Shown here: piece after piece, positions 3,238 to 41,476 of the stretch | How positions within the stretch are numbered: position 1 is the stretch's first letter | Layout: each line of letters starts with the position of its first letter | From: a bacterium | GTDB taxonomy: Bacteria; Patescibacteriota; Patescibacteriia; JACQSD01 | Length of the DNA stretch: 45,078 bases | NCBI GenBank assembly: GCA_030648795.1 | Contig: JAUSHC010000014.1 | Location: 1-45,078, forward strand | Direction of reading: 5' to 3' | Made by a program: the position numbers and the translations under genes | The notes under the pieces: generated by a model | What the model was told of the DNA's origin: nothing | What the model saw: the letters and a program-made list of their open reading frames with translations, nothing else | Databases searched by the model: none

Positions 3238-3260
3238 GCCGCCCACCCGCGGCTTTTTTT
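3238..3260 (+). terminator. Rho-independent terminator after the CYTH gene
   Basis: GCCGC/GCGGC 5-bp GC stem (3238-3242/3249-3253, loop CCACCC), followed by a T7 run at 3254-3260. Confidence 0.65.
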
Positions 3261-3299
3261 ATAACTCGCCCTCCGACCGCGGTCGGAGCTGGGAGTTAT
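3261..3299. repeat. Palindromic element, family C (CCGACC-NN-GGTCGG core), intergenic copy
   Basis: CTCCGACCGCGGTCGGAG is a perfect 18-nt palindrome (3271-3288), extended by outer arms ATAACTC/GAGTTAT (3261-3267/3293-3299). Related copies are at 5451-5487, 38297-38340 and 44192-44211. Confidence 0.8.
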
Positions 3300-3300
3300 A

Positions 3301-3414
3301 ACCCCGTACCAAGCCTTTTGATTGCACCTCATTTTTATACTACTACAGCCGTAGGCGTTTCCGTGTGACGATCGTGGCATTATTCTAAACCTTGTCGGGC
3401 TTTGGTACTGGGGT
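3301..3414. other. About 114-nt segment bounded by imperfect inverted repeats (possible small structured RNA or MITE-like relic)
   Basis: ACCCCGTACCAAGCC (3301-3315) is complementary to GGGCTTTGGTACTGGGGT (3397-3414) apart from two 1-nt bulges. The pair encloses 81 nt inside an unusually long (about 290 nt) intergenic spacer. Confidence 0.3.
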
Positions 3415-4109: not shown

Positions 4110-5078
4110 ATGAACGCATTACATCAATCTATCCTCGCCGCTATTACGTATTTTGATCTTTTCGATTATCCGTTAACCTCGACGGAGGTGTGGAAGTATT
4201 TGTGGCTCGATCGGTCAACACCGAGTGTTGATCAAAAAAAACACTCGGTGTTGAAAACGCCGTCACTATTTGCAGTGATCGAGGAGTTGGAAAAATTAGA
4301 GAAAGATGGTCGAGTGGTGAGTGGCAATGGATTTTACTTCTTACCCGGACGCGAGACGCTGATTAAGACGAGAAATTTTCGGCATGTTATTGCGTATCGT
4401 AAATGGCATAGAGCATTACGCGTCGTGCGGGTGTTGCGATGGTTCCCATTTATCCGCATGATCGGCGTTGCGAACACGCTCGCCTACGATAATGCGGATG
4501 AGGGGAGCGATATTGATTTATTTATTGTGACTGCGAAAGGACGCGTGTGGACTGCACGTTTTTTTATTGTGCTCTTTTTGCAATTATTTGGCTTGCGTCC
4601 GAACGTGAAGACTCGTCGTGACAAAATCTGTGCATGTTTTTTTGTAGACGAAGATCATCTTGATATTTCTAATCTCGCGCTACCCGGCGAACCGGATGTT
4701 TACTTGCATTACTGGATCGCAACCTTGTGGCCATTGTATAACCTAGATGGTGTGTACGAAAAATTTTTTGAAGCAAATGCGTGGGTTCAAAAGAATGTCC
4801 CGAACATTCACGCGATCGTTCCAAACATGTTTCGCCGTATTAGCCTAACAAGGGGCACCCTTGTATGCAACAAGGGTGCCCCTTGTAGTGTCTTTCCCGA
4901 ATCATTTTATCGCCGCCTGCAAGAACGCCGTTTTCCCGATGCGATCCGTACGCGACTTAGCAAAGACACCACGGTCGTCGCCAATGATCATGTCCTAAAA
5001 TTCCATGTCCATGACCGTCGTGAGGAGTATCGAAAAAAGTTTATTGAAAAAATGAGCATGTATGATGCGATGGATTGA
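4110..5078 (+). CDS. Hypothetical protein with Pol-beta-type nucleotidyltransferase-like motif and an N-terminal winged-helix-like region
   Basis: 322-aa ORF. The motif GVANTLAYDNADEGSDIDLFIV resembles the hG[GS]..x..D-h-D-h nucleotidyltransferase signature. It overlaps the downstream Wzy-like gene by 17 nt (operon). It contains two in-frame palindromic elements at 4215-4254 and 4848-4886. Confidence 0.5.
   Translation: MNALHQSILAAITYFDLFDYPLTSTEVWKYLWLDRSTPSVDQKKHSVLKTPSLFAVIEELEKLEKDGRVVSGNGFYFLPGRETLIKTRNFRHVIAYRKWHRALRVVRVLRWFPFIRMIGVANTLAYDNADEGSDIDLFIVTAKGRVWTARFFIVLFLQLFGLRPNVKTRRDKICACFFVDEDHLDISNLALPGEPDVYLHYWIATLWPLYNLDGVYEKFFEANAWVQKNVPNIHAIVPNMFRRISLTRGTLVCNKGAPCSVFPESFYRRLQERRFPDAIRTRLSKDTTVVANDHVLKFHVHDRREEYRKKFIEKMSMYDAMD
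4215..4254. repeat. Palindromic element, family A (AACACCGAGTGTT / AACACTCGGTGTT), inside a CDS
   Basis: Perfect 15-bp arms TCAACACCGAGTGTT (4215-4229) and AACACTCGGTGTTGA (4240-4254), with loop GATCAAAAAA. It is translated as STPSVDQKKHSVLK. The same 13-nt arms recur at 41445-41476. Confidence 0.85.
4848..4886. repeat. Palindromic element, family B (ACAAGGGGCACCCTTGT), inside a CDS
   Basis: Perfect 17-bp arms at 4848-4864 and 4870-4886, with loop ATGCA. The element is exactly 39 nt, or 13 codons (TRGTLVCNKGAPC). A second copy is at 33327-33365. Confidence 0.9.
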
Positions 5079-6360
5079 AAGATTATTAATACTTTTTATA
5101 TTCCTTATTCCATGGCAAGCAAGATTCATTTTGCGGGCTGGGGAGTTGGGTGATAGTTTTTGGGAATATGGAACGGTGGCACTGTATGCGACGGATGTTT
5201 TGTTTGTTGTGATTTTATTGTTGAGTGGAATATGGTGGATAAAAAATCAAAAATCAAAAATCAAAAATCAAAATGACAATGCAGAATTAAAAAATAACTT
5301 ACAACTTACTACTTACAACTTACTACTAATTACCGGTTACATAGCCTTTTCCATCTTCTGGTCTTTTGATAAAACGGTTTCTTTTTACGCGGCGTTGAAG
5401 TTTCTTGAAGGCGTTGCGTTATTTTTTATTGTACGAACGGTTCAATCTTACGAGGTCGGACCTCATAAGATGGGAGGTCCGACCTCGAGGATATTGTGGG
5501 CGTTTGTGGCGAGTGCGGTGGCGCAGAGCGTTCTTGCGATCGCACAGTTTTTCACGCAGTCCGTTTTCGCATGGCCGTTTTCCGGCATTGCTCCGCAGGA
5601 TCCGTCGGATCTTGGCGTGTCAGTCGTACAATTTGCCGATGAACGCTGGCTTCGCGCATACGGATCGTTTCCGCATCCCAACTTACTCGGTGCATTCATA
5701 GCGATAGCGGCGATCATTTTATTTACACAGTTATTTCGAAGTCGAGACGAAGAATCAGGAATTAAGAATCATGAATTAGGGACGTTAAAATTCATACTTC
5801 ATAATTCATACTTCATAATTCTTATTACCGGCTTATTCTTCACCTTCTCCCGTACCGCATGGATCGCATTTTTTGTTGGACTTGTTATCTACGCCATTCA
5901 GACAAAAGCATGGCGAGAAAAAATATTTTTACAACTCACTTTATTGCTCGTCGTTACGGGAACCATTCTCACCGTTTTATTTTTCCCACTTGTCCGTACG
6001 CGTGTTGGTGGGGGATCGCGCCTTGAGATACAATCGAATCAAGAACGCACCACCGGATATCGCGAAGCGATGCAACTCATTAAAAAACATCCATTCGTTG
6101 GCGTTGGCATCGGCAACTATACCGTCGCCGTCGCCCGCGAACTTCGCCTCCATGATCCTGTATGGTCGTATCAACCCGCACACAATGTTTTTCTTCTCAT
6201 CCTCTCCGAATTGGGTATTTTTGGATTAGCTTTATTTCTAATATTTTTTTGGCGATTAAAAAACTTACAACTTACTACTTACTACTACCACTTATCATCC
6301 TCTCCCTCTTCGATCACTCTCTTTGGGTGCTTCATTCGGGTATACTTCTTCTATGGTTGA
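5062..6360 (+). CDS. O-antigen ligase / Wzy_C-family polytopic membrane protein, apparently frameshifted near the 3' end
   Basis: It has about 10 hydrophobic segments and a FSRTAWIAFFVGLVIYA motif typical of the Wzy_C loop region. The frame-1 tail after 6263 (LQLTTYYYHLSSSPSSITLFGCFIRVYFFYG) is not membrane-like, whereas frame 3 continues with a hydrophobic ...LPLIILSLFDHSLWVLHSGILLLWLSMAL ending at 6395. Confidence 0.75.
   Translation: MMRWIERLLILFIFLIPWQARFILRAGELGDSFWEYGTVALYATDVLFVVILLLSGIWWIKNQKSKIKNQNDNAELKNNLQLTTYNLLLITGYIAFSIFWSFDKTVSFYAALKFLEGVALFFIVRTVQSYEVGPHKMGGPTSRILWAFVASAVAQSVLAIAQFFTQSVFAWPFSGIAPQDPSDLGVSVVQFADERWLRAYGSFPHPNLLGAFIAIAAIILFTQLFRSRDEESGIKNHELGTLKFILHNSYFIILITGLFFTFSRTAWIAFFVGLVIYAIQTKAWREKIFLQLTLLLVVTGTILTVLFFPLVRTRVGGGSRLEIQSNQERTTGYREAMQLIKKHPFVGVGIGNYTVAVARELRLHDPVWSYQPAHNVFLLILSELGIFGLALFLIFFWRLKNLQLTTYYYHLSSSPSSITLFGCFIRVYFFYG
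5242..5331 (+). repeat. Heptanucleotide tandem repeats inside the Wzy-like CDS
   Basis: (AAAAATC)x4 at 5242-5269. (ACTTACA ACTTACT)x2 at 5297-5324, followed by a degenerate ACTAATT. Translated as KNQKSKIKNQ...LQLTTYNLLLI. Confidence 0.9.
5451..5487. repeat. Palindromic element, family C, inside the Wzy-like CDS
   Basis: Perfect 14-bp arms CGAGGTCGGACCTC (5451-5464) and GAGGTCCGACCTCG (5474-5487), with loop ATAAGATGG. Translated as YEVGPHKMGGPTSR. Confidence 0.9.
5789..5820 (+). repeat. 14-nt tandem repeat (two heptamers) inside the Wzy-like CDS
   Basis: AATTCATACTTCAT occurs twice (5789-5802, 5803-5816), followed by a partial AATT. An imperfect complement GAATTAAGAATCATGAATT lies upstream at 5759-5777. 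Confidence 0.85.
6263..6290 (+). repeat. Heptanucleotide tract coinciding with the Wzy-like frameshift
   Basis: ACTTACA ACTTACT ACTTACT (6263-6283), then a degenerate ACTACCA. That is three full units, against four in the paralogous tract at 5297-5324. Confidence 0.9.
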
Positions 6361-6395
6361 GTATGGCTCTCGCCATGAAAGAAGACAGGGCTTGA
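6291..6395 (+). other. Out-of-frame continuation (frame 3) encoding the likely genuine C-terminal helix of the Wzy-like protein
   Basis: Frame 3 reads LPLIILSLFDHSLWVLHSGILLLWLSMALAMKEDRA, with stop TGA at 6393-6395. This is hydrophobic, unlike the frame-1 tail. Confidence 0.6.
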
Positions 6396-6419
6396 CACTA
6401 AATTCCATTGGTATATTAT
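6392..6419 (+). promoter_or_regulatory. Sigma70-like promoter of groES-groEL
   Basis: TTGACA (6392-6397), 16 nt, TATTAT (6414-6419), immediately upstream of the CIRCE operator. Confidence 0.65.
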
Positions 6420-6432
6420 AGGGATAGCGAGA

Positions 6433-6459
6433 TTAGCACTCTCATCATAAGACTGCTAA
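6433..6459. promoter_or_regulatory. CIRCE operator (HrcA binding site)
   Basis: TTAGCACTC-N9-GACTGCTAA against the consensus TTAGCACTC-N9-GAGTGCTAA (one mismatch). It lies 37 nt upstream of the groES ATG. Confidence 0.9.
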
Positions 6460-6495
6460 TCTCTTTAATTCTAAATAATTAATAATACACTCACT

Positions 6496-8452
<1,957 letters not shown>

Positions 8453-8470
8453 AAGTATCCTCCTAAAAAC

Positions 8471-8508
8471 AAAAATCCCTTCGACTATCGTCGGAGGGAT
8501 TTTTGTTG
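8471..8508 (+). terminator. Rho-independent terminator after groEL
   Basis: 15-bp stem AAAAATCCCTTCGAC/GTCGGAGGGATTTTT (one G:U, loop TATC) running into a T-rich tail. Confidence 0.8.
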
Positions 8509-28700: not shown

Positions 28701-30638
28701 GTTACGTTAACATCATCCGCAACGCTTGCCACTAATCGCCCGCTTCTTTCAGGGCTTCTTTCTATTGGGAGTACGGTTGCGCAAGTATTGATTGACGAAC
28801 AACCCGTTGCACCTGTATCTATCGGAGCAAGTGGGGCATTCGTATTTGCGTCCCCCATTCGTCTTCCGGACGGAGAACATACGTTGCGTTTCATGGTGGA
28901 TAATATTCCGACAAATGCAGTCACCTTTTTTATTAGCACAAGAGAGCCAGTATCTGCAACCGTGAACGACATCGTCGTTGCGCGACAACAACCGGGGGCT
29001 GTACCGGGAACGATGGATCTCTTGATTGTTGTCCAAGCATCGGTTGACGCGACAACGCAATCGATCGCGCTTATTGATCCGACGGCAAAGACAACGATAG
29101 CCGAAGAAACAACAACAGCAAAACAGCCAACGCTTTCGGTCTCTGTCACAAGAACAGCCGAGCAACTTGGTACACACACACTGCTTTTAGTCACCCGCGA
29201 TCAGTTCGGGGAATCAACAATACAACAGATTACGTATGCGGTAACAAATGCGCCAATAAGTTATGCGTGTAGTGATGGCGTGGATAATGACGCGGACGGA
29301 AAGATTGATTATAGAGCGGATCCAGGTTGTTCTGGTTTTACAGATACACAAGAAGATGATTCGTTGCTTGTAACATTATCACAGCAAGCGACGGTTTCTG
29401 CAGTAACGAATGCGTTGAATGATACAGCAATGACGACTATCGATGCTGCACAACGTTTTACGGAACAAACAGTAAAGCAGACTGCCGCCTTTGCCGAGGT
29501 TACGGATCGTATTGTGCAAACAACACAACCGGTAACGATACGAACGTTGGCAGCGGTTGCTCCTGCGGCGATTGTGGTGAATCCGATAACAGCATCAAGT
29601 TTGCCTGCGCTTCCGGGGATGGTTACCAATGCGTTCTCATGGCTTTTCTCCGCTTTAGGAATTCGCAAGAAGCGAAAGAATCCATGGGGGATGGTGTATG
29701 ATGCCATTACGAAAGAGCCGATTGGTTTGGCAATTTTGCGACTTTTTGACGCGGGAACCCCGATAACAAAGCAGGGCGTTGTTACGGGACAGGCTTCACA
29801 ATTATTGGCAACGCAGGTCACTGATAAAGAAGGGCGGTTTGAATTTCTTGTGAAGCCGGGAAGCTACAGAATTGAGGCTCAAAAAACACCGTTTCTATTC
29901 CCGTCAAAGATTATCGAAGGGAAGGATGATGGAGAATTGTTTAATGTCTATCATGGAGAAGTGATTTCTGTCACTACTGAAGGACAAGCAATGCATGTAA
30001 ATATTCCTATTGATCAAGAAAATATTACGTTGCCGCGCATTGCTTCACTTCGCAATACGTTCCAACGTATTCGTCGAATTGCAAGCAAAGCATCACTGCC
30101 GCTTTTGGTCATAGGGACTGGAATAAGTATTGTCATGTACGCATTTTCGCAGACGAAGTATAATCTTTTAGCGCTTCTCGTCTACGTAGGATTTGCAGCA
30201 TACCAGACGATTCTCTCACCGAAGAAAGTGAAATCATGGGGTACGATTTTTGATGCAGTAACACTTACGCCGGTATCACTCGCGATGGTGAGCATTATTG
30301 ATCCGCAGTATCAGCGCGTTATCAAAACCCGTCTTTCAGATTATCAGGGAAGATTTACTTTTTTGCCTGATCCGGGGAATTATCAATTGAAAGTAACGAA
30401 AGCGAATTATCAGTTCCCGAGTAAGACCGAAAAAGCGGTTAAAAAATATCACCACTTGTATCACGGAGAATCTTTAACGGTCGCTAAAAAGAAGGCAATC
30501 ATTGCAGTAGATATTCCGCTTGACCCTCTTATGTCGACTGCGTCTACGCCGTCTGTTTCATCCGTGCCACCATCAACAATTCCGCCGACGGCTATCGCTA
30601 CGCCTCCCGCATCTCCTCCTACGTCACCAACATCGTGA
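25749..30638 (+). CDS. Giant surface protein 3 (1629 aa): N-terminal anchor or signal, Ycf48/BNR-like propeller, Ig-like array, Cys/Asp Ca-binding-like motif, C-terminal membrane module with two CarboxypepD_reg-like domains
   Basis: Uninterrupted 4.9-kb ORF. Its ATG overlaps the upstream TGA as ATGA (25749-25752). N-terminal hydrophobic segment SFVVSTIVIVSIIAASMMAPMIGRAAT. Confidence 0.9.
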   Translation: MMKHPFIFSRALSSFVVSTIVIVSIIAASMMAPMIGRAATGSWGVVSSPTTQTLTDVTFFNSDIGWAVGESGTILSWGAATKTWEKSGSSFTPATLWGVDAFGPSDAWAVGDSGSLLHFNGTAWVTESSFASTHLLDVDAVDAGTLWVVGDGGTIFEGVKTGSSFVWTQWSDAGFVSKVFYGVSFRDASDGWIVGSDGMILHWDGNVFAQIEAQVTDDLFDVIATGNNTAIVVGENGVILRVSTVGAERIVSPTGDASLLSVAMNAQGRGWIGGEYGTLLASADAGEHWQTATSSVSSALTRVFFPSEDQGWIVGTGGTIVHYMPLPAVPVLVNPMDAVVTNDAPLLFDWGAALYADTYTLRYATSVNFTSGVVTVPNLTASSYTPTVSDGTYYWKVWGVNTAGAGDISLVRSVRIDRTPPAIPQPEEPGANATVIMATPTLQWGVANDATRHELRLDDASPIAVTTNTYTPAVALGEGTHTWQVRSFDAVGNSSEWSGVQSFTVPSQTIVPPPDTTPPSVPTLLSPSVSATVTVRTPEFRWSGDTDVAEYDVQVFASGTTPPSVPLVVVASPWTSTDSLTNGVYSWRLRARDHAGNTSAWSTGTFTVTVASTITIEPPPSEQPIPPIVQPVPAPLVFSLTGPGSIITETKPVFTWSASVNATTYTLEIVGDGTAFIKTIANITTTSYIPAEALSQGKYFWKVTASNSEGVSVIAGSQPLIIDATPPPAPTLSEPSPDAQTTLPVALVWAPVSDNLTSVTYTVQVDDGNFSSPTFVTAGTSDVNAASTTTLEINAQNFVDTQYLITNGLTSGITYRWRVWAKDAAGNMSTAPSAVRSFIIPVPAVAPSAFTLAESSEVTIDATPTFQWTKSDGATAYTLFIQGNGANNTVTRAYPGSNEIPFTKLSYAITDPLPLGTYTWYVRATNSAGTYSAPSRLIMIATSVIEKKQSEILPPEPLPPLPPTKEAIDTAIRSGSIEETPTITVTLTSSATLATNRPLLSGLLSIGSTVAQVLIDEQPVAPVSIGASGAFVFASPIRLPDGEHTLRFMVDNIPTNAVTFFISTREPVSATVNDIVVARQQPGAVPGTMDLLIVVQASVDATTQSIALIDPTAKTTIAEETTTAKQPTLSVSVTRTAEQLGTHTLLLVTRDQFGESTIQQITYAVTNAPISYACSDGVDNDADGKIDYRADPGCSGFTDTQEDDSLLVTLSQQATVSAVTNALNDTAMTTIDAAQRFTEQTVKQTAAFAEVTDRIVQTTQPVTIRTLAAVAPAAIVVNPITASSLPALPGMVTNAFSWLFSALGIRKKRKNPWGMVYDAITKEPIGLAILRLFDAGTPITKQGVVTGQASQLLATQVTDKEGRFEFLVKPGSYRIEAQKTPFLFPSKIIEGKDDGELFNVYHGEVISVTTEGQAMHVNIPIDQENITLPRIASLRNTFQRIRRIASKASLPLLVIGTGISIVMYAFSQTKYNLLALLVYVGFAAYQTILSPKKVKSWGTIFDAVTLTPVSLAMVSIIDPQYQRVIKTRLSDYQGRFTFLPDPGNYQLKVTKANYQFPSKTEKAVKKYHHLYHGESLTVAKKKAIIAVDIPLDPLMSTASTPSVSSVPPSTIPPTAIATPPASPPTSPTS
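25870..26725 (+). repeat. Seven-blade Ycf48/BNR-like propeller in giant protein 3
   Basis: Blades: GWAVGESGTILSW, AWAVGDSGSLLHFNGTAW, LWVVGDGGTIF, GWIVGSDGMILHWDGNVF, AIVVGENGVILRV, GWIGGEYGTLLASADAGEHW, GWIVGTGGTIVHY. This is the same blade type as 17560-18360. Confidence 0.55.
26725..28560 (+). repeat. Ig/FN3-like repeat array in giant protein 3
   Basis: It uses the same P-x-(L/F)-x-W ... G-x-Y-x-W-x-V-x-A-x-D-x-A-G-N unit as the protein 2 arrays, in about 8-9 copies separated by Pro-rich linkers. Confidence 0.6.
29261..29345 (+). other. Cys/Asp-rich CxDGxDNDxDGxxD motif (thrombospondin-type-3/MopE-like Ca-binding-like)
   Basis: The peptide is YACSDGVDNDADGKIDYRADPGCSGF. Confidence 0.5.
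29530..30530 (+). other. C-terminal membrane module of giant protein 3: a TM segment, a CarboxypepD_reg-like domain, two TM segments, then a second CarboxypepD_reg-like domain
   Basis: Hydrophobic segments are LAAVAPAAIVVNPI...AFSWLFSALGI, LPLLVIGTGISIVMYAF and LLALLVYVGFAAYQTIL. The beta-sandwich motifs are GMVYDAITKEPIGLAILRLFD...TDKEGRFEFLVKPGSYRIEA and GTIFDAVTLTPVSLAMVSIID...DYQGRFTFLPDPGNYQLKV. The protein ends in a Pro/Thr/Ser tail. Confidence 0.55.
29756..29788. repeat. Palindromic element, family D, copy inside giant protein 3
   Basis: AACCCCGATAACAAAGCAGGGCGTTGTTACGGG is the exact reverse complement of 31381-31413 (33/33 nt). It has internal imperfect arms CCCGATAACAA/TTGTTACGGG. 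Confidence 0.9.
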
Positions 30639-30650
30639 CTCTCATAACAT

Positions 30651-31286
30651 ATGCTCATTTCTCTTCTTTTTGATAACCCGCTTCTCTTCGTTTCGGCAAT
30701 TCTTGCCGCGATCATTGCATTTACATTTCATGAATTTGCACATGCAGCAGCAGCAACGCTTTTAGGCGATGACACTGCAAAGCAAGAACGGCGACTGTCG
30801 TTAAATCCTTTCGCACATCTCGATGTTGTTGGATTCTCGCTTCTTCTCGTGAGCGGTTTTGGATGGGCAAAGCCAGTACCCTATAATCCGTATGGGCTCA
30901 AAACGCGCTTTGGAGGGAATCTTCTTATTCCACTCGCAGGACCGGCGATGAATTTTGTTCAAAGTATTATTGCGGCAAGCGCTTTGCGTCTATTTGCCGC
31001 CGCATCGTATTCTCCCGACCATTTTTTTGTGCAGTTTTTTGGTTTATTCCTTTTGATTAATCTTCTTCTTGGATTTTTTAATCTTATTCCTATTCCGCCA
31101 TTGGATGGATCGCGTATAATGCTTTCTCTTTTTCCGGATCGTTATGAAGAATCGAAAGTACATTTTGAACGATCGGGTCCGTTTCTTCTTATTCTTATTA
31201 TTATTCTTGATGCGTCGTCTGGATTTAATTTTTTCGCGCATTTTTTAAACGTGCTTTCTCATTTCGTTTCAGCGTTCATGTCTTAG
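30651..31286 (+). CDS. Site-2 protease family zinc metalloprotease (peptidase M50)
   Basis: HEFAH zinc motif in the first TM helix, a NLIPIPPLDGSRI (LDG) motif, and a polytopic hydrophobic profile. It starts 12 nt after the giant protein 3 stop. Confidence 0.85.
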   Translation: MLISLLFDNPLLFVSAILAAIIAFTFHEFAHAAAATLLGDDTAKQERRLSLNPFAHLDVVGFSLLLVSGFGWAKPVPYNPYGLKTRFGGNLLIPLAGPAMNFVQSIIAASALRLFAAASYSPDHFFVQFFGLFLLINLLLGFFNLIPIPPLDGSRIMLSLFPDRYEESKVHFERSGPFLLILIIILDASSGFNFFAHFLNVLSHFVSAFMS

Positions 31287-33066
31287 TAGTCTTTGTCATA
31301 TATGTTCCTTCGCGTTTGTAGCCGAGTTTTTCGTAGTAGGGACGGACGCCAATGCCAGCGATGACGGCAATTTTTCTTGCCCCGTAACAACGCCCTGCTT
31401 TGTTATCGGGGTTTATTCCATACTCTCGTACAATCTCCTCCGCTTTTTCCATAAGCTGTTTCCCAAAACCCGTATGTTGTATCGTTCCTTCTTCGCCGAT
31501 AGGTATCAGGTGTCCGTAGGTGTGCAGTTCGCGGATGAATGCACAGTCGGCGATTTCCGGGATGAGCGTATCCAGCTCTGGAGTTATACTTTTTTTCTGC
31601 ACAATGCGCGCGGGAATACGTAAACGACAAAATGCGTAAACGGCGGTGCGCTCGGGATCTTCGAATGATAAAAAATATTCCTTGCCGCCCGACGCCTCAT
31701 ACTCATCAACAAACAATGTTACACGGTTCACGTTTAACGTTTTACGTTCTTGGTGTCCGATTTCGCGGCATCGGAGACACTGGCAGACGAGTCCGCGTTT
31801 TTTCATGAGTGCTTGGATGGTCTGTCGAAGATTCGTGACGTTATTTCCGTCGTAAATATAATCCGCAGGGATGTCGCGAATGAGACGCGATATGCGTACA
31901 TATCGTGGAATGCGTGATTTTACGGTGATGAGCACCTCGATCAATTCTTCGAGACTATATGGTTTGTATTTTCCATCTTTCCACCATTGAAAAATTTCTG
32001 CAGTTTTCAAAACAACGCAGGGATAGATTTTCATCATGTCGGGGCGAAGATCGCCGTCGCTCCAGAGCATGTCGAATGCGGCGATATCTTTTTCGGGTGT
32101 AGCACCGGGAAGTTGCGGCATCATGTGAAAGTCTACTTTGAATCCCGCCTCGCGCAACAAAAGTGTCGCTCGTTTTACGCCACTGATATCGTGCCCCCGA
32201 TTGACACCTTTGAGTATTTCGGGATCGGTGTGTTGTACGCCAAGCTCAATCCTTGTGCATCCGAGCGCCCGCAATCGTGCTACTTCTTTTGCCGTCACCC
32301 AGTCAGGACGTGTTTCTAAGGTGATGCCAATAACACGGTGCGTTCCCAGTTCATTTTTTTTATGCGCCCCCTCTATTTCTTCATCGGTTATAGGCACGGC
32401 ATCCACCCACCCATCAGTATTATCAACTTGTCGATGTTCTTTTTCGAGACGCGTTCCCGGTTCTTCTGCTGGTGCAACTTGATCTTTGCTTTTGATAAGT
32501 ATCATCGTATACTCTTCGGGCTGCTCTACAGACCCGGCATCATTTGCGCCGTCGAAACAGCGTTTTAAAAACCAGCGCTGATAGACAGCGGGATAGGCAG
32601 ACCATGTGCCGCCTTTGACGATGAGTTCAATCTTGTCTGTTGGATGGCCGTTTGCAGTGAGCGTCTCTATGCGCGATCGCATTTGCGTGTACGGATCAAA
32701 GCGAAGAATGAGTCCGCGCCATGCGGCTGGTTCTTTCTCGAGATAGGATTTTGGCATGCGGACTTCGGTCGGGCAGTAGGAGCATTTTCCGGGACAGGGG
32801 TAGGGGCGCGCTAAGACGGTGATGATGGCGACGCCGGAAAGCGTACGCATGGGATGTTTTTGTAGAAGTCCTTCCAGGCGCTCATTACGAAGAATGGTTT
32901 TTGTTTCGAGCAGATCGTGATATGCTTTTAACAGATCCATTGTTGTCGGAAAGATGGCGCCGGGGCTTTGGCGCGCTAATCGTCGCTCAACCGAAAGAAT
33001 ATCCTCGCGGGAAGTAGGAGGAGTAGCGATGAGTTGTTCTACGATTTTTTGAGAGAAAGATTTCAT
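31276..33066 (-). CDS. Elp3-like radical-SAM/GNAT enzyme (tRNA U34 carboxymethyl-type modification)
   Basis: 596 aa. It has the radical-SAM CPGKCSYC (CxxxCxxC) motif, ...GITLETRPDW..., a TRIELGVQ TIM-barrel motif, and a C-terminal GNAT domain with the QHTGFGKQLM acetyl-CoA loop and GIGVRPYYEKLGY. It overlaps the 3' end of the M50 gene by 11 nt in convergent orientation. Confidence 0.85.
   Translation of the reverse strand: MKSFSQKIVEQLIATPPTSREDILSVERRLARQSPGAIFPTTMDLLKAYHDLLETKTILRNERLEGLLQKHPMRTLSGVAIITVLARPYPCPGKCSYCPTEVRMPKSYLEKEPAAWRGLILRFDPYTQMRSRIETLTANGHPTDKIELIVKGGTWSAYPAVYQRWFLKRCFDGANDAGSVEQPEEYTMILIKSKDQVAPAEEPGTRLEKEHRQVDNTDGWVDAVPITDEEIEGAHKKNELGTHRVIGITLETRPDWVTAKEVARLRALGCTRIELGVQHTDPEILKGVNRGHDISGVKRATLLLREAGFKVDFHMMPQLPGATPEKDIAAFDMLWSDGDLRPDMMKIYPCVVLKTAEIFQWWKDGKYKPYSLEELIEVLITVKSRIPRYVRISRLIRDIPADYIYDGNNVTNLRQTIQALMKKRGLVCQCLRCREIGHQERKTLNVNRVTLFVDEYEASGGKEYFLSFEDPERTAVYAFCRLRIPARIVQKKSITPELDTLIPEIADCAFIRELHTYGHLIPIGEEGTIQHTGFGKQLMEKAEEIVREYGINPDNKAGRCYGARKIAVIAGIGVRPYYEKLGYKREGTYMTKTTKT
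31381..31413. repeat. Palindromic element, family D, copy inside the Elp3-like CDS
   Basis: Exact reverse complement of 29756-29788. It lies in the segment encoding INPDNKAGRCYGA, which looks like an extra loop between the GNAT helix (EEIVREYG) and the RKIAVIAGIGVR strand. Confidence 0.9.
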
Positions 33067-33067
33067 T

Positions 33068-33793
33068 ATGGATAAAAAATTTGCTCAACAAATTCTTGAA
33101 AAAACGTGGCGTGATTATGACGCGATCGCTTCTTTATTTTCCGAGACCCGAGAGCGTGTATACGATCTCGAGCCCTTGGTTTCTAGCGTAAAGAGCGGTG
33201 ACACGGTACTTGATGTAGGATGTGGTAATGGCCGTTTGCTTGGGGCGCTACCGGTGGGTGTGCAGTATGTCGGATGTGATACGAGTGTGCAAATGATTGC
33301 GATCGCAAAGAAGCGATGTGCAATTTATAAGGGGCATCTTTGTAAAAAACAAGGGTGCCCCTTGTGTGTACGTTTCGTTCTGGGTGATGTGCTTAGACTC
33401 CCTTTTCCCGACGCATCATTCGATCATGTCTTCGCATTGGCCGTGCTTCATCATATCCCAAGTACTGCTTTACGGCAACAGGCAATATCGGAACTGGTGC
33501 GTCTTGTAAAACCTGGCGGTCGGATTACGATAACCGTATGGAATCTTCGGAGTTTCTATTGGATGAAACGCTACCGATTATGGCAGTTGTTTTTTGGGTT
33601 GCATCCGCAAGGATACGATCGTGGCGATTGTTTTGTACCATGGAAGCGAGGAGTCGAAAAGCCAATTATGCGCTATGTACATGCATTTACGGGATGGGAA
33701 TTAGCGAAATTATGTATAAATGGAGGACTTTCCCTTATTGCGCAATCACATGGGCGAAGCCACATTGTGGTTGCAACGCGCCCCGTTGTCTAA
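33068..33793 (+). CDS. Class I SAM-dependent methyltransferase, Trm9/ALKBH8-MT-like
   Basis: Motif I is VLDVGCGNGRLLG. The motifs ...RLPFPDASFDHVFALAVLHHIPS..R, GGRITITVWNL, DCFVPWK and RYVHAFTGWELAKL follow the order of the yeast Trm9 motifs (HFSxTR, DVGCGNGKYLG, FDFAISIAVVHH, FVPW, YRYYHLF..GEL) as I recall them. Its ATG lies 1 nt from the divergent Elp3 start. Confidence 0.65.
   Translation: MDKKFAQQILEKTWRDYDAIASLFSETRERVYDLEPLVSSVKSGDTVLDVGCGNGRLLGALPVGVQYVGCDTSVQMIAIAKKRCAIYKGHLCKKQGCPLCVRFVLGDVLRLPFPDASFDHVFALAVLHHIPSTALRQQAISELVRLVKPGGRITITVWNLRSFYWMKRYRLWQLFFGLHPQGYDRGDCFVPWKRGVEKPIMRYVHAFTGWELAKLCINGGLSLIAQSHGRSHIVVATRPVV
33327..33365. repeat. Palindromic element, family B, inside the methyltransferase CDS
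   Basis: Arms ATAAGGGGCATCTTTGT (33327-33343) and ACAAGGGTGCCCCTTGT (33349-33365), with loop AAAAA. The three C-to-T differences in the left arm still allow G:U pairing. The element is 39 nt and is translated in a different frame (YKGHLCKKQGCPLC) from the 4848 copy. Confidence 0.85.
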
Positions 33794-36822: not shown

Positions 36823-38235
36823 ATGGCTACGAAGCGTTTGTTTGGAACGTCGGGGATCCGTGGTGTTGTGGGTGAGGACATCACGCCGATATTGGCCCTT
36901 CAGGTCGGGGTGCTGTACGGCGTGTGGTTGAAGGCGCACACCGATGAGGACAATCGTACGGTTGCGGTGGCGCATGACAACCGTCCGGGCGCTGACGTGC
37001 TTGCGCATGCCGCGGCGAATGGTTTCATCTCCGCTGGTATGCATGTTGATTTCCTTGGATGCGTGTCGACGGGGGTACTGGCGGCGTTCATGGAGTCGCA
37101 TTGCGGCGGGCTTATGGTTACCGCGTCGCATATGCCGCAGGGAAGGATCAGCATCATTCCCTTGTTCGCGAACGGGCATTACTGCGACTCCGATGTTACG
37201 GATATTCTTGAAGAAGGAATCCGTGCATGGGAAGGGATCGAGACCATTGCCGATCCGGAGAATATTGGTAACGTGACGATCGTATCTGAAGAACAGAGCA
37301 GAATGCTCTATCTTCAGAAGATGCCGCAGCACATTCTTCTTCGCTCGCGTATTGCCAATCGATCTTTCCGGTTGCTTATGGATCCGGGGAATGGAACGGC
37401 AGGGCGCGTTGCGAAGGAACTGTTTGAATCCGTTGGGTGCAGGATCGAAACGCTTCACTATGAGCAAAAACCTGTGCCCGACCGTCCGAGCGAGTGTCGC
37501 GCGGAAACCTGTGGTGAGGCGATTGCGCAGACGGTGGAGCGCGGATGCCACATCGGAGTGTGTTTTGATGGGGATGCCGATCGAGTCCTTTTCATTACCG
37601 GAAAAGGTGATGTACTTCCCGACAGCGTGGTCGGAGCGATTTTTGCCCGCCACTACGTACAGGAAGGGCAAGTCATCGTTACACCGGAAAATGCAAGTGG
37701 TCTTGTCGAGGTTATCGCAAAAGAACGTGGTGCGCGAGTCGAGTACTCTCGTATCGGTCAACCCTCGACGGGTACGGCCATACGTGCGCATGGTGCCACA
37801 TTCGCGTATGAAGAGGCGGCGGGCAAGTTCGGATTCTTCGAACTCGCTTGCGCTTATGACGGTCCATTTGCTGTTTTGAAAATGCTCGAGATCATGGCGC
37901 GACGCGGCAAGTCGCTTGCCGAACTTGCGGCAGAAATTCCGCAGTTCTTCCAGAAGGCAATTAAGATCGACGTTCCGGATGCGAAGAAAGATGCGGTTGT
38001 CGCAGATGCGATTCCGCGTCTCCGTCAAGTCCTTGATGGGCAGACCAGCAAGGAAACTGCGATCGGTGGAATCAAGGTCTTTCTACGTGAAGGTTCCTGG
38101 GTGCTTATCCGCCCAAGCGGTACTGAACCCCTCGTTCGTGTTTACACTGACACGAGAGTAAGCCAGGTACGCGCAGATGCTCTGGCGGAACTCGGCGCGA
38201 TATGCTTTAAGGAAGCGATCGCTGCTATCGGCTAA
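36823..38235 (+). CDS. Phosphohexomutase (GlmM / PGM-PMM family)
   Basis: FGTSGIRG at the N-terminus, catalytic Ser loop VTASHMPQG, Mg loop FDGDADR, and phosphate loop RPSGTEPLVRVY. Substrate specificity cannot be determined from sequence alone. Confidence 0.8.
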   Translation: MATKRLFGTSGIRGVVGEDITPILALQVGVLYGVWLKAHTDEDNRTVAVAHDNRPGADVLAHAAANGFISAGMHVDFLGCVSTGVLAAFMESHCGGLMVTASHMPQGRISIIPLFANGHYCDSDVTDILEEGIRAWEGIETIADPENIGNVTIVSEEQSRMLYLQKMPQHILLRSRIANRSFRLLMDPGNGTAGRVAKELFESVGCRIETLHYEQKPVPDRPSECRAETCGEAIAQTVERGCHIGVCFDGDADRVLFITGKGDVLPDSVVGAIFARHYVQEGQVIVTPENASGLVEVIAKERGARVEYSRIGQPSTGTAIRAHGATFAYEEAAGKFGFFELACAYDGPFAVLKMLEIMARRGKSLAELAAEIPQFFQKAIKIDVPDAKKDAVVADAIPRLRQVLDGQTSKETAIGGIKVFLREGSWVLIRPSGTEPLVRVYTDTRVSQVRADALAELGAICFKEAIAAIG

Positions 38236-38254
38236 GATCGTTTCACAAATAAAC

Positions 38255-38288
38255 CCCCGACGATGTATGTTCGTCGGGGTATTTTTTT
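38255..38288 (+). terminator. Rho-independent terminator after the phosphohexomutase gene
   Basis: Perfect 9-bp stem CCCCGACGA/TCGTCGGGG (loop TGTATGT), followed by TA and T7 at 38282-38288. Confidence 0.8.
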
Positions 38289-38296
38289 ATTATGCC

Positions 38297-38340
38297 TGCC
38301 CGAATACCAATCCGACCGCGGTCGGATTGGATGAAGGGCA
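38297..38340. repeat. Palindromic element, family C, intergenic copy
   Basis: CCAATCCGACCGCGGTCGGATTGG is a perfect 24-nt palindrome (38307-38330), flanked by TGCCC/GGGCA. It shares the TCCGACCGCGGTCGGA core with 3271-3288. Confidence 0.85.
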
Positions 38341-38446
38341 ACCGATGTAAATATACGGTCGGCGGAGCCGACTCTACTTATAACGCACCCGCCCAGATAC
38401 CCCGCTGCTTGCGGCGGGATCGGGTTCACATTGATGCGCGTTTGTA

Positions 38447-39031
38447 CTACAGTAACTTTTTTATGATCTCCCAAATTTTTTCGTGTACGTATTCTTTGGT
38501 GCCGTCCACGGCAACACGTATCCATCCGCGTTCGTCGGCGCATTGTTCATGTGCGACACGTACTCGTTCCATGAGCGTCGAGTCTTCTTCATGGGTATGA
38601 TTTTTTTCAATGGAGAACGTGAATCGTCTGCCATGCAAGAGTATGGCGATGTCTTCTTTGTAGAGTGCGCTGTTGATGTCGCGTAAAAATTTAGGGTCAA
38701 CACCGGCGCCTTCACCCCATGCGATGCCGGTGCCGAGATAATCCTCGGCGACAACGATCGTACCACGCTCAAGTATCGCTTGAAGCGTTGATTCATACTG
38801 TGTGCGGTTTAATGCGGTGATGGTCTGGAATTCGCGCGGGGTAAGCGCATAGGGATTGCCCTCGCGGAGATAGGCGCTTACTATCGGTCCCGAAGGAGCA
38901 AGAGTGTAGATGGGGTATTTGATGTAGACCACATCTTTTTTTTCTCGGCGCAGACGATCCGTAAGCATTTTTGCTTGTGTTGTTTTACCGAGATTATTGA
39001 TGCCATAGAGCACGATTAATTTTCCTTTCAT
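38447..39031 (-). CDS. Thymidylate-kinase-like P-loop kinase
   Basis: 194 aa. P-loop GINNLGKTTQ, the motif ...YIKYP...LREG..., and DYLGTGIAW in place of the canonical DRYxxSxxAY. It is ATGA-coupled to dgt within a dNTP-metabolism cluster. Confidence 0.6.
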   Translation of the reverse strand: MKGKLIVLYGINNLGKTTQAKMLTDRLRREKKDVVYIKYPIYTLAPSGPIVSAYLREGNPYALTPREFQTITALNRTQYESTLQAILERGTIVVAEDYLGTGIAWGEGAGVDPKFLRDINSALYKEDIAILLHGRRFTFSIEKNHTHEEDSTLMERVRVAHEQCADERGWIRVAVDGTKEYVHEKIWEIIKKLL

Positions 39032-40765: not shown

Positions 40766-41359
40766 ATGCTTGATGAACGCATCACGCAAACATCTTGGGT
40801 TATGAACGCGTTTCATCGCGCGCAACAGGCATCGCTTCCGCTTCTGCGTTCTATTGTGAGAACGGGGGGTGTGGCGGCAGTTGTCCTCGTGCGTCATGGG
40901 GTTACTGATGATCGCATGGAGGGCGATCCGTCGTTTCTTGGGAGGGATGCGGATCGTGATCAACGGATTCTGCACGCGGCGATTGAAGAGTCGCACGGCA
41001 TCATCGTAGATACCGGTTCACTCCTCATCGCACATCTTCAGACTGACCCCGAGAGCATTCGATTCCTATTGCAGTTCGGCGTGTCGCTGGATGACCAGTT
41101 TATCGCAGAGATAAATTTACTGCGAGAGCAGGAAGCGACACCTCCGAAATTGGGAGATCCTGTGCTTGATATTACTGCGCGTTCAGAGGCGCAAGAAGTG
41201 CAACGTGAGCGCATGAATTTTTCGAAGCTCGCCGCACTTATCACAGAGGACTTCGAAGGCGCAGATGCACTCCGTCGCGGAATCCTCGAGTTGGATATAA
41301 GCGTCGAAGGTGTCGTGTACGAGGCTCCTCCTCGACAGAAAGAGGAGGAAGAAGGATAA
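40766..41359 (+). CDS. Hypothetical protein (197 aa), no recognised family
   Basis: It has its own promoter-like and SD elements and a downstream terminator, and ends in an acidic tail (QKEEEEG). It lies on the opposite strand between folA and thyA. I recognised no motif; an alpha/beta N-terminal half is only a guess. Confidence 0.55.
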   Translation: MLDERITQTSWVMNAFHRAQQASLPLLRSIVRTGGVAAVVLVRHGVTDDRMEGDPSFLGRDADRDQRILHAAIEESHGIIVDTGSLLIAHLQTDPESIRFLLQFGVSLDDQFIAEINLLREQEATPPKLGDPVLDITARSEAQEVQRERMNFSKLAALITEDFEGADALRRGILELDISVEGVVYEAPPRQKEEEEG

Positions 41360-41444: not shown

Positions 41445-41476
41445 AACACTCGGTGTTACGCACAACACCGAGTGTT
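41445..41476. repeat. Palindromic element, family A, at the thyA stop codon
   Basis: Perfect 13-bp arms AACACTCGGTGTT (41445-41457) and AACACCGAGTGTT (41464-41476), with loop ACGCAC. The right arm overlaps the thyA stop codon by 2 nt. No U-tract follows on either strand. Confidence 0.85.

Follow-up and report, generated by a model that had tools for sequence, protein, structure and literature searches.

A REP-like hairpin repeat, probably dispersed, within two protein-coding genes of a Patescibacteria genome

Introduction

Repetitive extragenic palindromic elements (REPs) are imperfect palindromes of about 20-40 nt, with stems of 5-13 bp and loops of 2-20 nt; occasional copies lie in frame within known genes, where they encode about 10 amino acids (aa), and recB carries different REPs at much the same point in two Xanthomonas species (Di Nocera et al. 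2013, PMC3733652). Rickettsia palindromic elements (RPEs) are selfish palindromic repeats of a reduced-genome, host-dependent bacterium, and often lie in frame in unrelated housekeeping genes, at structurally permissive sites and without inactivating them (PMC10969869, PMC3733652). Rickettsia conorii also has short REP-like units, RPE-4 and RPE-6 (PMC3733652). Here we describe a 36-nt hairpin repeat in a 45,078-nt stretch of DNA (contig JAUSHC010000014.1, assembly GCA_030648795.1; hereafter the window) from a bacterium of the Patescibacteria, or candidate phyla radiation (CPR). It lies in frame within two genes of the window, one for a giant surface protein (copy A) and one for the radical-SAM/GNAT tRNA-modification enzyme Elp3 (copy B).

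Two further systems are relevant to this element. Elements of the IS200/IS605 type recognise a bulged imperfect hairpin together with a short single-stranded motif at its foot, insert next to a short target without a target-site duplication (TSD), and normally have two end hairpins that differ from each other. Cyanobacterial small dispersed repeats (SDRs), reportedly described by Elhai and colleagues in 2008, are said to be mobile-looking hairpin repeats of a few tens of nucleotides, found through filled and empty orthologous sites and sometimes nested. We found nothing relevant in the literature on such elements in CPR/Patescibacteria. Copies A and B are, we think it likely, independent copies of one short, dispersed, non-autonomous, REP-like hairpin repeat of a Patescibacteria lineage.

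Results

Two copies of one hairpin sequence in convergent genes

The first-pass annotation of the window, made from its letters alone, had reported a perfect inverted repeat of 33 nt shared by two coding sequences. The sequence AACCCCGATAACAAAGCAGGGCGTTGTTACGGG occupies positions 29756-29788 of the + strand and its exact reverse complement lies at 31381-31413 (33/33 identical). Scanning the window with up to three mismatches returned these two matches in all, and none of 100 dinucleotide shuffles contained any match, in agreement with that report. A repeat finder extended the pair to 35 of 36 identical positions (29756-29791 / 31378-31413), leaving 1586 nt between the arms. The copies are inverted because the two host genes are convergent; each lies in the sense orientation of its gene, and the same hairpin sequence is present in both mRNAs. 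The reading frames differ, giving PITKQGVVTGQA in copy A and NPDNKAGRCYGA in copy B, and the host frames were correctly read at the outset (GTPITKQGVVTG in the giant protein, INPDNKAGRCYGA in the Elp3-like gene). An M50-family peptidase gene between the copies is a bystander, and the gene order methyltransferase-Elp3-M50-giant protein is kept in relatives without copy B. The pair is not a CRISPR or tandem guide array of regularly spaced direct repeats: there are two copies, inverted, this far apart and within open reading frames (ORFs).

Each copy is a lineage-specific insertion of 36 nt. In our alignment, exactly the 12 residues NPDNKAGRCYGA are missing from all 12 full-length homologues of Elp3, including P0001-P0003 with 83, 82 and 77% identity. 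The solved Elp3 of Methanocaldococcus infernus is without the segment as well (an 11-residue gap in that comparison), in line with the first-pass statement that canonical Elp3 runs directly from the helix into the strand at this point. At the DNA level, the empty site in the related locus L011 reads GGAATAAA^AAAAATCGCC (^ marks the insertion point), with equivalents in L006 and L010, and the window reads GGAATAAA, then the insert CCCCGATAACAAAGCAGGGCGTTGTTACGGGGCAAG, then AAAAATTGCC, so that 36 nt have entered an A-run and no bases are duplicated. In an AlphaFold2 model based on the alignment of homologues, residues 552-563 form a coil between a helix (534-550) and a strand (565-568), with a local predicted confidence (pLDDT) of about 50 or less, and the insert is predicted to take a surface-loop position. 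Copy B is unique to the window, whereas the site of copy A is also occupied in L006 and L001.

The giant-protein site lacks the 12 residues in five homologues: L010, P0121, P0122, P0123 and P0125, of which P0123 is the same Candidatus Uhrbacteria metagenome-assembled genome (MAG) as L012. The empty sites read GCGGGAA^CGAAACAATT in L010 and GCGGAAA^GAAAAC in L012, and the window has 36 nt more there. A self-alignment shows that, at the matching point, the protein's sister CarboxypepD_reg-like domain has 12 residues fewer, in agreement with the first-pass figure of about 12. The site is filled in the window, in L001 and in L006, the window's sister lineage, which carries a 45-nt variant whose stem is the same apart from a wobble and one mismatch and whose larger loop holds a nested palindrome. 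The same or a variant element is present there in independent assemblies of other samples (L001, and L006-L009, four assemblies). Alignment of both host proteins with orthologues, a check proposed at first pass, found the 12-aa segments to be lineage-specific and not shared by the orthologues examined; a related peptide occurred only in L001 and L006, and both have the palindromic DNA.

Three junctions can be compared between filled and empty states (Elp3; the giant protein in the window and L010; the giant protein in L001 and L012), and none has a TSD. A candidate duplication, CAAA in L001, was dropped, as the remaining junctions did not show it. Read on the opposite strand, the three empty sites are all TTTT(T/C)^ or TTTCG^.

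Anatomy of the unit

The unit consists of the arm CCCCG-A-TAACAA, the 9-nt loop AGCAGGGCG and the arm TTGTTA-CGGGG, together a 32-nt stem-loop, followed by a 3' tail CA(G/A)(G/A), often CAGGC; its short form measures 36 nt and the family consensus is AACCCCGATAACAAAGCAGGGCGTTGTTACGGGGCAGGC. As first described, it is an imperfect hairpin, with 11 bp, one bulged A and the 9-nt loop. Folded as RNA, it has an energy of -13 to -16 kcal/mol (z = -2.4 to -3.4), which is modest for the window, and the significant feature is the repetition of the sequence rather than its fold energy. Across the family the hairpin foot and the 3' tail are conserved, in contrast to a variable loop and interior; most copies have AGG as their apical triloop, and L003 has TTC. 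The arms CCCCGATAACAA and TTGTTACGGGG themselves form the ends of the element as terminal inverted repeats (TIRs). On each strand, sense and antisense, two of the three frames through the element are free of stop codons, and the lengths of in-gene copies are multiples of three (36 or 45 nt). No Rfam family covers the element in the window, L001, L003 or L004, even at E<=10, and neither GTAG/CTAC nor CGTC/GACG tags were found at either end of AACCCCGATAACAAAGCAGGGCGTTGTTACGGGGCAGGC.

Copies in other genomes

An exact-stem scan with the pattern CCCGATAACAA-N9-TTGTTACGGG over 185,579 species-representative genomes returned three copies, all in one MAG, CAYHPG01 (contigs L001, L003 and L004). The same scan of 241 M metagenome records returned just one contig, a duplicate of a CAYHPG01 contig, from Hainich groundwater, and a scan of viral contigs gave 0 matches. 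The scans required exact stems, and the window's own genome was absent from the scanned collections. A match in L002 (Rhodocyclaceae) has the same stems, another loop and an unrelated context, and was taken as chance.

The L001 copy occupies the orthologous giant-protein site. The L004 copy (19-57) lies within an open thioredoxin-reductase (TrxB) frame (…SSTPITKQGVVTGQAGSGNK…VDGVFVEMGH…) and its reading frame is that of the giant-protein copy; L004 begins 18 nt upstream of it, and the N-terminal side of the TrxB insert is out of view. Reading this copy as a 5' untranslated element, on account of an opposite-strand ATG, was ruled out, as the TrxB frame is open through the copy. The L003 copy lies 40 nt downstream of mreB, where, on the mreB sense strand, it caps a composite hairpin of -35.5 kcal/mol that has UUUUUUG after it, an arrangement that looks terminator-like.

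A covariance model (R1), built from six copies, scored copy A at 65.5 bits and copy B at 66.1 bits and also found a 73-nt relative at L004 677-749, just upstream of the likely rnhB start. This relative has the same ends (CCCCGATAGT…ACTACGGGGCAGGC), a 19-bp stem, two bulged A's and an inner hairpin, which suggests a family whose ends define it and whose interior is variable or nested. Weak R1 matches at L010 13073-13125 (E 0.27) and at 490-513 and 6559-6575 of the window were judged to be noise. CAYHPG01 has, in addition to its three exact-stem copies, this one long relative; two are genic (the giant-protein site in L001 and TrxB in L004), one follows mreB and one precedes rnhB. Counting distinct loci, 4/6 are genic. 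The family is dispersed within and between genomes, with conserved ends and a variable interior. Further copies at unrelated loci of another genome support the first-pass reading of the repeat as a small mobile palindromic insertion, its mobility being indicated by the filled and empty sites and by this dispersal. A profile of the element's peptide (TPITKQGVVTGQA core with random flanks), which worked in a local test, had no match in a collection of 5.8 billion proteins; this search had low power, as the giant proteins of L001, L006 and L010 are evidently not in that collection.

CAYHPG01 is titled 'uncultured Gammaproteobacteria', a label that is probably wrong: its gene content and its synteny with the Uhrbacteria MAG L012 point to Patescibacteria. 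In L001, an ORF fusing LexA/S24 and an N6/N4 DNA methylase and a MvaI/BcnI-family restriction endonuclease (4451-7059) lie between iPGM and the giant-protein gene; this cassette may be an insertion, because iPGM directly adjoins the giant-protein gene in the related L012. In L003, the motif GTCATTGCGAGCGAAGCGCGGCAATC (about 4240-4275) adjoins the intergenic copy and resembles what we take to be a widespread short repeat, often mis-called as tiny ORFs. L012, in which the giant-protein site is empty, has a possible distant relative of the element, CCCCGTTAGAAG…TAATGGGGCA, at 5652-5685 (-), upstream of a cation-ATPase gene.

History of the giant-protein site

A neighbour-joining tree built from 278 ungapped columns of the giant-protein C-terminus grouped the window with L006 (98.5% bootstrap, both filled) and L001 with L012 (100% bootstrap, L001 filled and L012 empty). 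The empty L010, P0121 and P0122 fell outside the group of the window and L006, and their mutual grouping was weak (bootstrap 9.5%; L010+P0122 74%). The site is filled in two separate clades, each with an empty sister lineage. Between the window and L001 the element is identical at 33/36 positions (the contiguous 33-mer) and its flanks are 57-65% identical, whereas between the window and its sister L006 the element is identical at just 29/45 positions and the flanks at 75-76%. A single ancient insertion under uniform constraint cannot account for both sets of figures. The comparison requires at least one of three processes: independent insertion into the same site, renewal of a copy by conversion from other copies, or exchange between lineages. 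These identities suggest recent or repeated insertion, or homogenisation between copies, and whichever process applies, the copies are young relative to their host genes.

Other hairpin insertions in the window

We surveyed 14 conserved neighbouring genes and the conserved C-terminal part of the giant protein for insertions of at least 5 aa relative to L006, L010 and L011. The window-specific insertions were those in Elp3 (12 aa), the giant-protein C-terminus (12 aa), a methyltransferase (10 aa) and GatB (6 aa); ThyA had two more gaps, but just against the 35%-identical L006 counterpart. Three of the four (Elp3, giant protein and methyltransferase) are hairpin repeats that occur twice in the window. 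Strong hairpins also exceed their number in shuffled sequence, with 9 against about 2.4 by stem criteria and 37 against about 19 by energy. In-frame hairpin insertion is a general process in this genome.

The methyltransferase insertion belongs to a second palindrome family (Table 1). It adds a net 30 nt (10 aa, KGHLCKKQGCPLC) in frame to the methyltransferase gene (33068..33793) and is missing in three orthologues. The other copy of this family lies within ORF 4110..5078 (TRGTLVCNKGAPC), and a related peptide occupies that place in the ORF's homologue P0126 (78% identical). A third family has one copy in a length-variable part of the same ORF and one intergenic copy, between the convergent gene 40766..41359 (+) and thyA (-), and there is also a fourth.

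Three other features of the window were recorded. A perfect 14-bp hairpin, CGAGGTCGGACCTC…GAGGTCCGACCTCG (5451-5487, -30 kcal/mol), lies in a Wzy_C/O-antigen-ligase-like ORF (5062..6360). An 18-bp stem followed by a T-run (8468-8507), right after a groEL-like gene (6758..8452), looks like an ordinary intrinsic terminator, in contrast to the intragenic hairpins. A phosphoglucomutase/phosphomannomutase gene (36823-38235) lies between gatB and tmk and is not found at that position in L006 or L010.

Table 1. Positions of the hairpin copies, their host genes and the other palindrome families in the window.
Feature	Position	Strand	Remarks
Host gene 1, giant surface protein, 1629 aa	25749..30638	+	BNR/Ig-like repeats; two C-terminal CarboxypepD_reg-like domains with transmembrane segments
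Copy A, 36-nt insert CCCCGATAACAAAGCAGGGCGTTGTTACGGGACAGG	29758..29793	+	Boundary ambiguous by 1 nt; in-frame PITKQGVVTGQA in the C-terminal CarboxypepD_reg-like domain
5' arm, copy A hairpin	29758..29769	+	CCCCG-A-TAACAA, A29763 bulged
Loop, copy A	29770..29778	+	AGCAGGGCG
3' arm, copy A hairpin	29779..29789	+	TTGTTA-CGGGA; final base G in all other copies
M50-family peptidase gene	30651..31286	+	Between copies A and B
Host gene 2, radical-SAM/GNAT tRNA-modification enzyme Elp3, 596 aa	31276..33066	-	Carries copy B
Copy B, 36-nt insert CCCCGATAACAAAGCAGGGCGTTGTTACGGGGCAAG	31376..31411	-	NPDNKAGRCYGA in the GNAT/KAT domain; frame unlike copy A
Predicted insert-spanning peptides of the two host proteins			EYGINPDNKAGRCYGARK and DAGTPITKQGVVTGQASQ
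Second palindrome family, AAGGGGCAYCYTTGT-loop-ACAAGGGTGCCCCTTGT	33326-33365 and 4848-4886		4848 copy: perfect 17-bp stem, -34 kcal/mol
Third hairpin family, AACACCGAGTGTT arms	4215-4254 and 41445-41476		13-15-bp perfect stems
Fourth palindrome family, common core TCCGACCGCGGTCGGA	3257-3302 and 38297-38342		One copy intergenic, the other in an unannotated ORF (38232..38543 - / 38292..38600 +)

Discussion

Comparison with described elements

The closest known elements are REPs, including intragenic REPs, and the closest by behaviour are RPEs. The stem, bulge and loop of the 32-nt unit all fall within REP ranges; further likenesses are a short conserved tail at one end, terminator-like positions downstream of genes, different units at one gene site in related species, and the fact that REP families can be small. 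Unlike REPs, the element has no GTAG/CGTC tag, and we saw neither a gene for a REP-associated tyrosine transposase (RAYT) in the window, L001, L003 or L004 nor any head-to-head dimers or clusters. In the loci examined, its copy number appears to be very low and its genic share high; REPs are mostly extragenic and present in many copies. Its hosts, the Patescibacteria, are not among the phyla listed in the survey of REPs (PMC3733652).

The first-pass annotation had likened the repeat to RPEs. That likeness stands as an analogy, in that the element is a palindromic insertion in frame within ORFs at tolerated positions; the element is not an RPE, being three to four times shorter, from another phylum to judge by the gene content and the names of homologues, and nearer in anatomy to REP-type stem-loops. 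RPE-1-type elements measure about 100-150 bp and encode 30-50 aa (12 aa here), in a comparison made by description rather than by sequence, and RPEs are Rickettsia-specific and CGTC-tagged.

MITEs, miniature transposable elements with inverted repeats (Correia/NEMIS, ERIC, RUP and Nezha, and the terminator-like SPRITE elements), are likewise non-autonomous, have inverted-repeat ends, can form in-frame fusions and in some cases mimic terminators. The element shares the TIRs, and its 73-nt relative keeps the same ends. MITEs, in contrast, measure 70-300 bp (50-500 bp by the broader size range that we applied), have TIRs of 15-30 bp and make TSDs; the element is 36 nt long, makes no TSD in three comparisons and has no related insertion sequence (IS) as a parent in any locus examined. 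IS200/IS605 elements and their miniature derivatives appear to be similar in their bulged hairpin, the tail beside its foot, the lack of a TSD and the T-rich empty sites; unlike them, the element comes with no TnpA or RAYT gene that we could detect in the window or in about 22 kb of CAYHPG01. Cyanobacterial SDRs differ in phylum and sequence and lie mostly in intergenic regions or within other repeats. A more distant analogue is provided by the mitochondrial hairpin elements or GC clusters of sponges and fungi, very small hairpin repeats that have repeatedly invaded compact genomes, mostly in intergenic regions and sometimes in rRNA or protein genes, with no known encoded mobility function (PMC2800124); these are organellar, their sequences are unrelated and no homology is implied. 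Because the tests of REP tags, of MITE TSDs and size and of RPE size all failed, we class the element as a new REP/RPE-like family, outside every named one.

Proposed mechanism

We propose that the element would be copied into new sites without a TSD, mobilised in trans by an enzyme recognising the hairpin foot and the tail. In-gene copies would persist only where their length is a multiple of three, the frame is free of stops and the site is a permissive surface loop, and would add about 12 residues; the insertions are presumably neutral for protein function. The leading candidate route, put forward tentatively, would be HUH/RAYT-type single-strand 'peel-and-paste' beside a T-rich target; copy-paste by template switching or break repair would be the alternative.

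A broader proposal, on which we are more doubtful still, is that the element represents an undescribed 'foot-and-tail' class of hairpins in Patescibacteria. A base CCCCGATA...TACGGGG and a CAGGC tail would be read by a trans-acting enzyme, insertion would take place without duplication and repeatedly into the same permissive protein sites, the elements would move horizontally between deeply diverged CPR lineages sharing a habitat, and they would be a steady source of in-frame peptides in essential genes of such minimal genomes.

Several observations weigh against a dispersed, mobile repeat. The 45 kb of the window and the roughly 22 kb of L001, L003 and L004 yielded no transposase, RAYT or recombinase gene, and the tags of classical REPs are missing. 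Copy number appears low, with two copies in 45 kb and with exact-stem scans that yielded one other MAG (three matches) and one duplicate contig. The candidate target motif, CGG(G)AA followed by an A-run and T-rich on the other strand, is anecdotal, coming from three independent filled/empty comparisons. Copy B is present in this one assembly. It may also have arisen from one local template switch, as this genome has just two copies, separated by 1.6 kb.

Alternative explanations

The last point belongs to the strongest of the alternatives, which we nevertheless consider unlikely: that copy B was made once from copy A, 1.6 kb away on the opposite strand, by template switching or break repair and without a dedicated mobility system. 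Breaks are known to acquire short templated inverted insertions; the two copies are close together and inverted, neither a TSD nor a transposase was found, and the copy A site is occupied in L006 and L001 where copy B is restricted to the window. Such an event does not explain the same sequence in unrelated contexts on three contigs of another genome, a longer relative that has just the ends in common, or a giant-protein site filled in two clades with empty sisters. In addition, the hairpin foot of copy B has the G of the family consensus where copy A has A, so copy A in its present form is not an exact template.

It is still less probable that the identity of the copies is kept by selection for an RNA or DNA signal (a terminator, stabiliser or protein-binding site) and that the hairpin spread through that role rather than by selfish mobility. 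The near-perfect conservation of the element between genomes whose flanks are 57-65% identical would fit this explanation, as would the copy at the apex of the terminator-like structure after mreB and the sense orientation of every genic copy. A terminator-like hairpin would, however, have no obvious benefit within Elp3, TrxB or the giant protein, sister lineages manage well in its absence, no Rfam family matches it, and the sister copy in L006 has diverged freely. Function and mobility of the hairpin are compatible and not mutually exclusive.

A programmed inversion, in which recombination at the repeats would flip the 1.6-kb segment and so switch gene products (an intragenic inverton), is highly improbable. 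A perfect 33-bp inverted repeat does bound a discrete segment spanning three gene ends; a simulated flip, however, disrupts both reading frames and truncates the products (the giant protein from 1629 to 1374 aa, Elp3 from 596 to 573 aa) and reverses the M50 gene, the window has no invertase or recombinase, and the arms were acquired independently, relatives carrying one without the other. An accidental RecA-type inversion between the arms is possible, but would be deleterious. A chimera of assembly or amplification that put the same 33-mer in two places is equally improbable. That copy B comes from a single assembly would fit it, but both inserts are exactly 36 nt long and in frame within otherwise intact conserved genes, and independent assemblies of other samples have the same or a variant element at the copy A site.

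Implications

A dispersed hairpin repeat of this kind would be a clean, datable case of selfish hairpin DNA absorbed into essential proteins of ultra-small CPR bacteria (a radical-SAM tRNA-modifying enzyme, probably a thioredoxin reductase, and a giant surface protein), with filled and empty alleles to compare. Its most interesting points, in our view, are the mobilising activity, the way in which one protein site has been filled repeatedly, and the recurrence of an identical sequence in genomes that are deeply diverged; the identical sequence could mark recent genetic exchange, or help to find the mobilising enzyme. Such elements may also break assemblies, as the start of contig L004 18 nt before a copy may indicate, and would account for odd insertions of 10-15 residues in otherwise conserved CPR proteins. 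The element parallels the RPEs of Rickettsia in a second, unrelated lineage of reduced, host-dependent bacteria, and because of this parallel our analysis suggests that lineage-specific loops in genomes of this kind arise recurrently from tolerated palindromic insertions.

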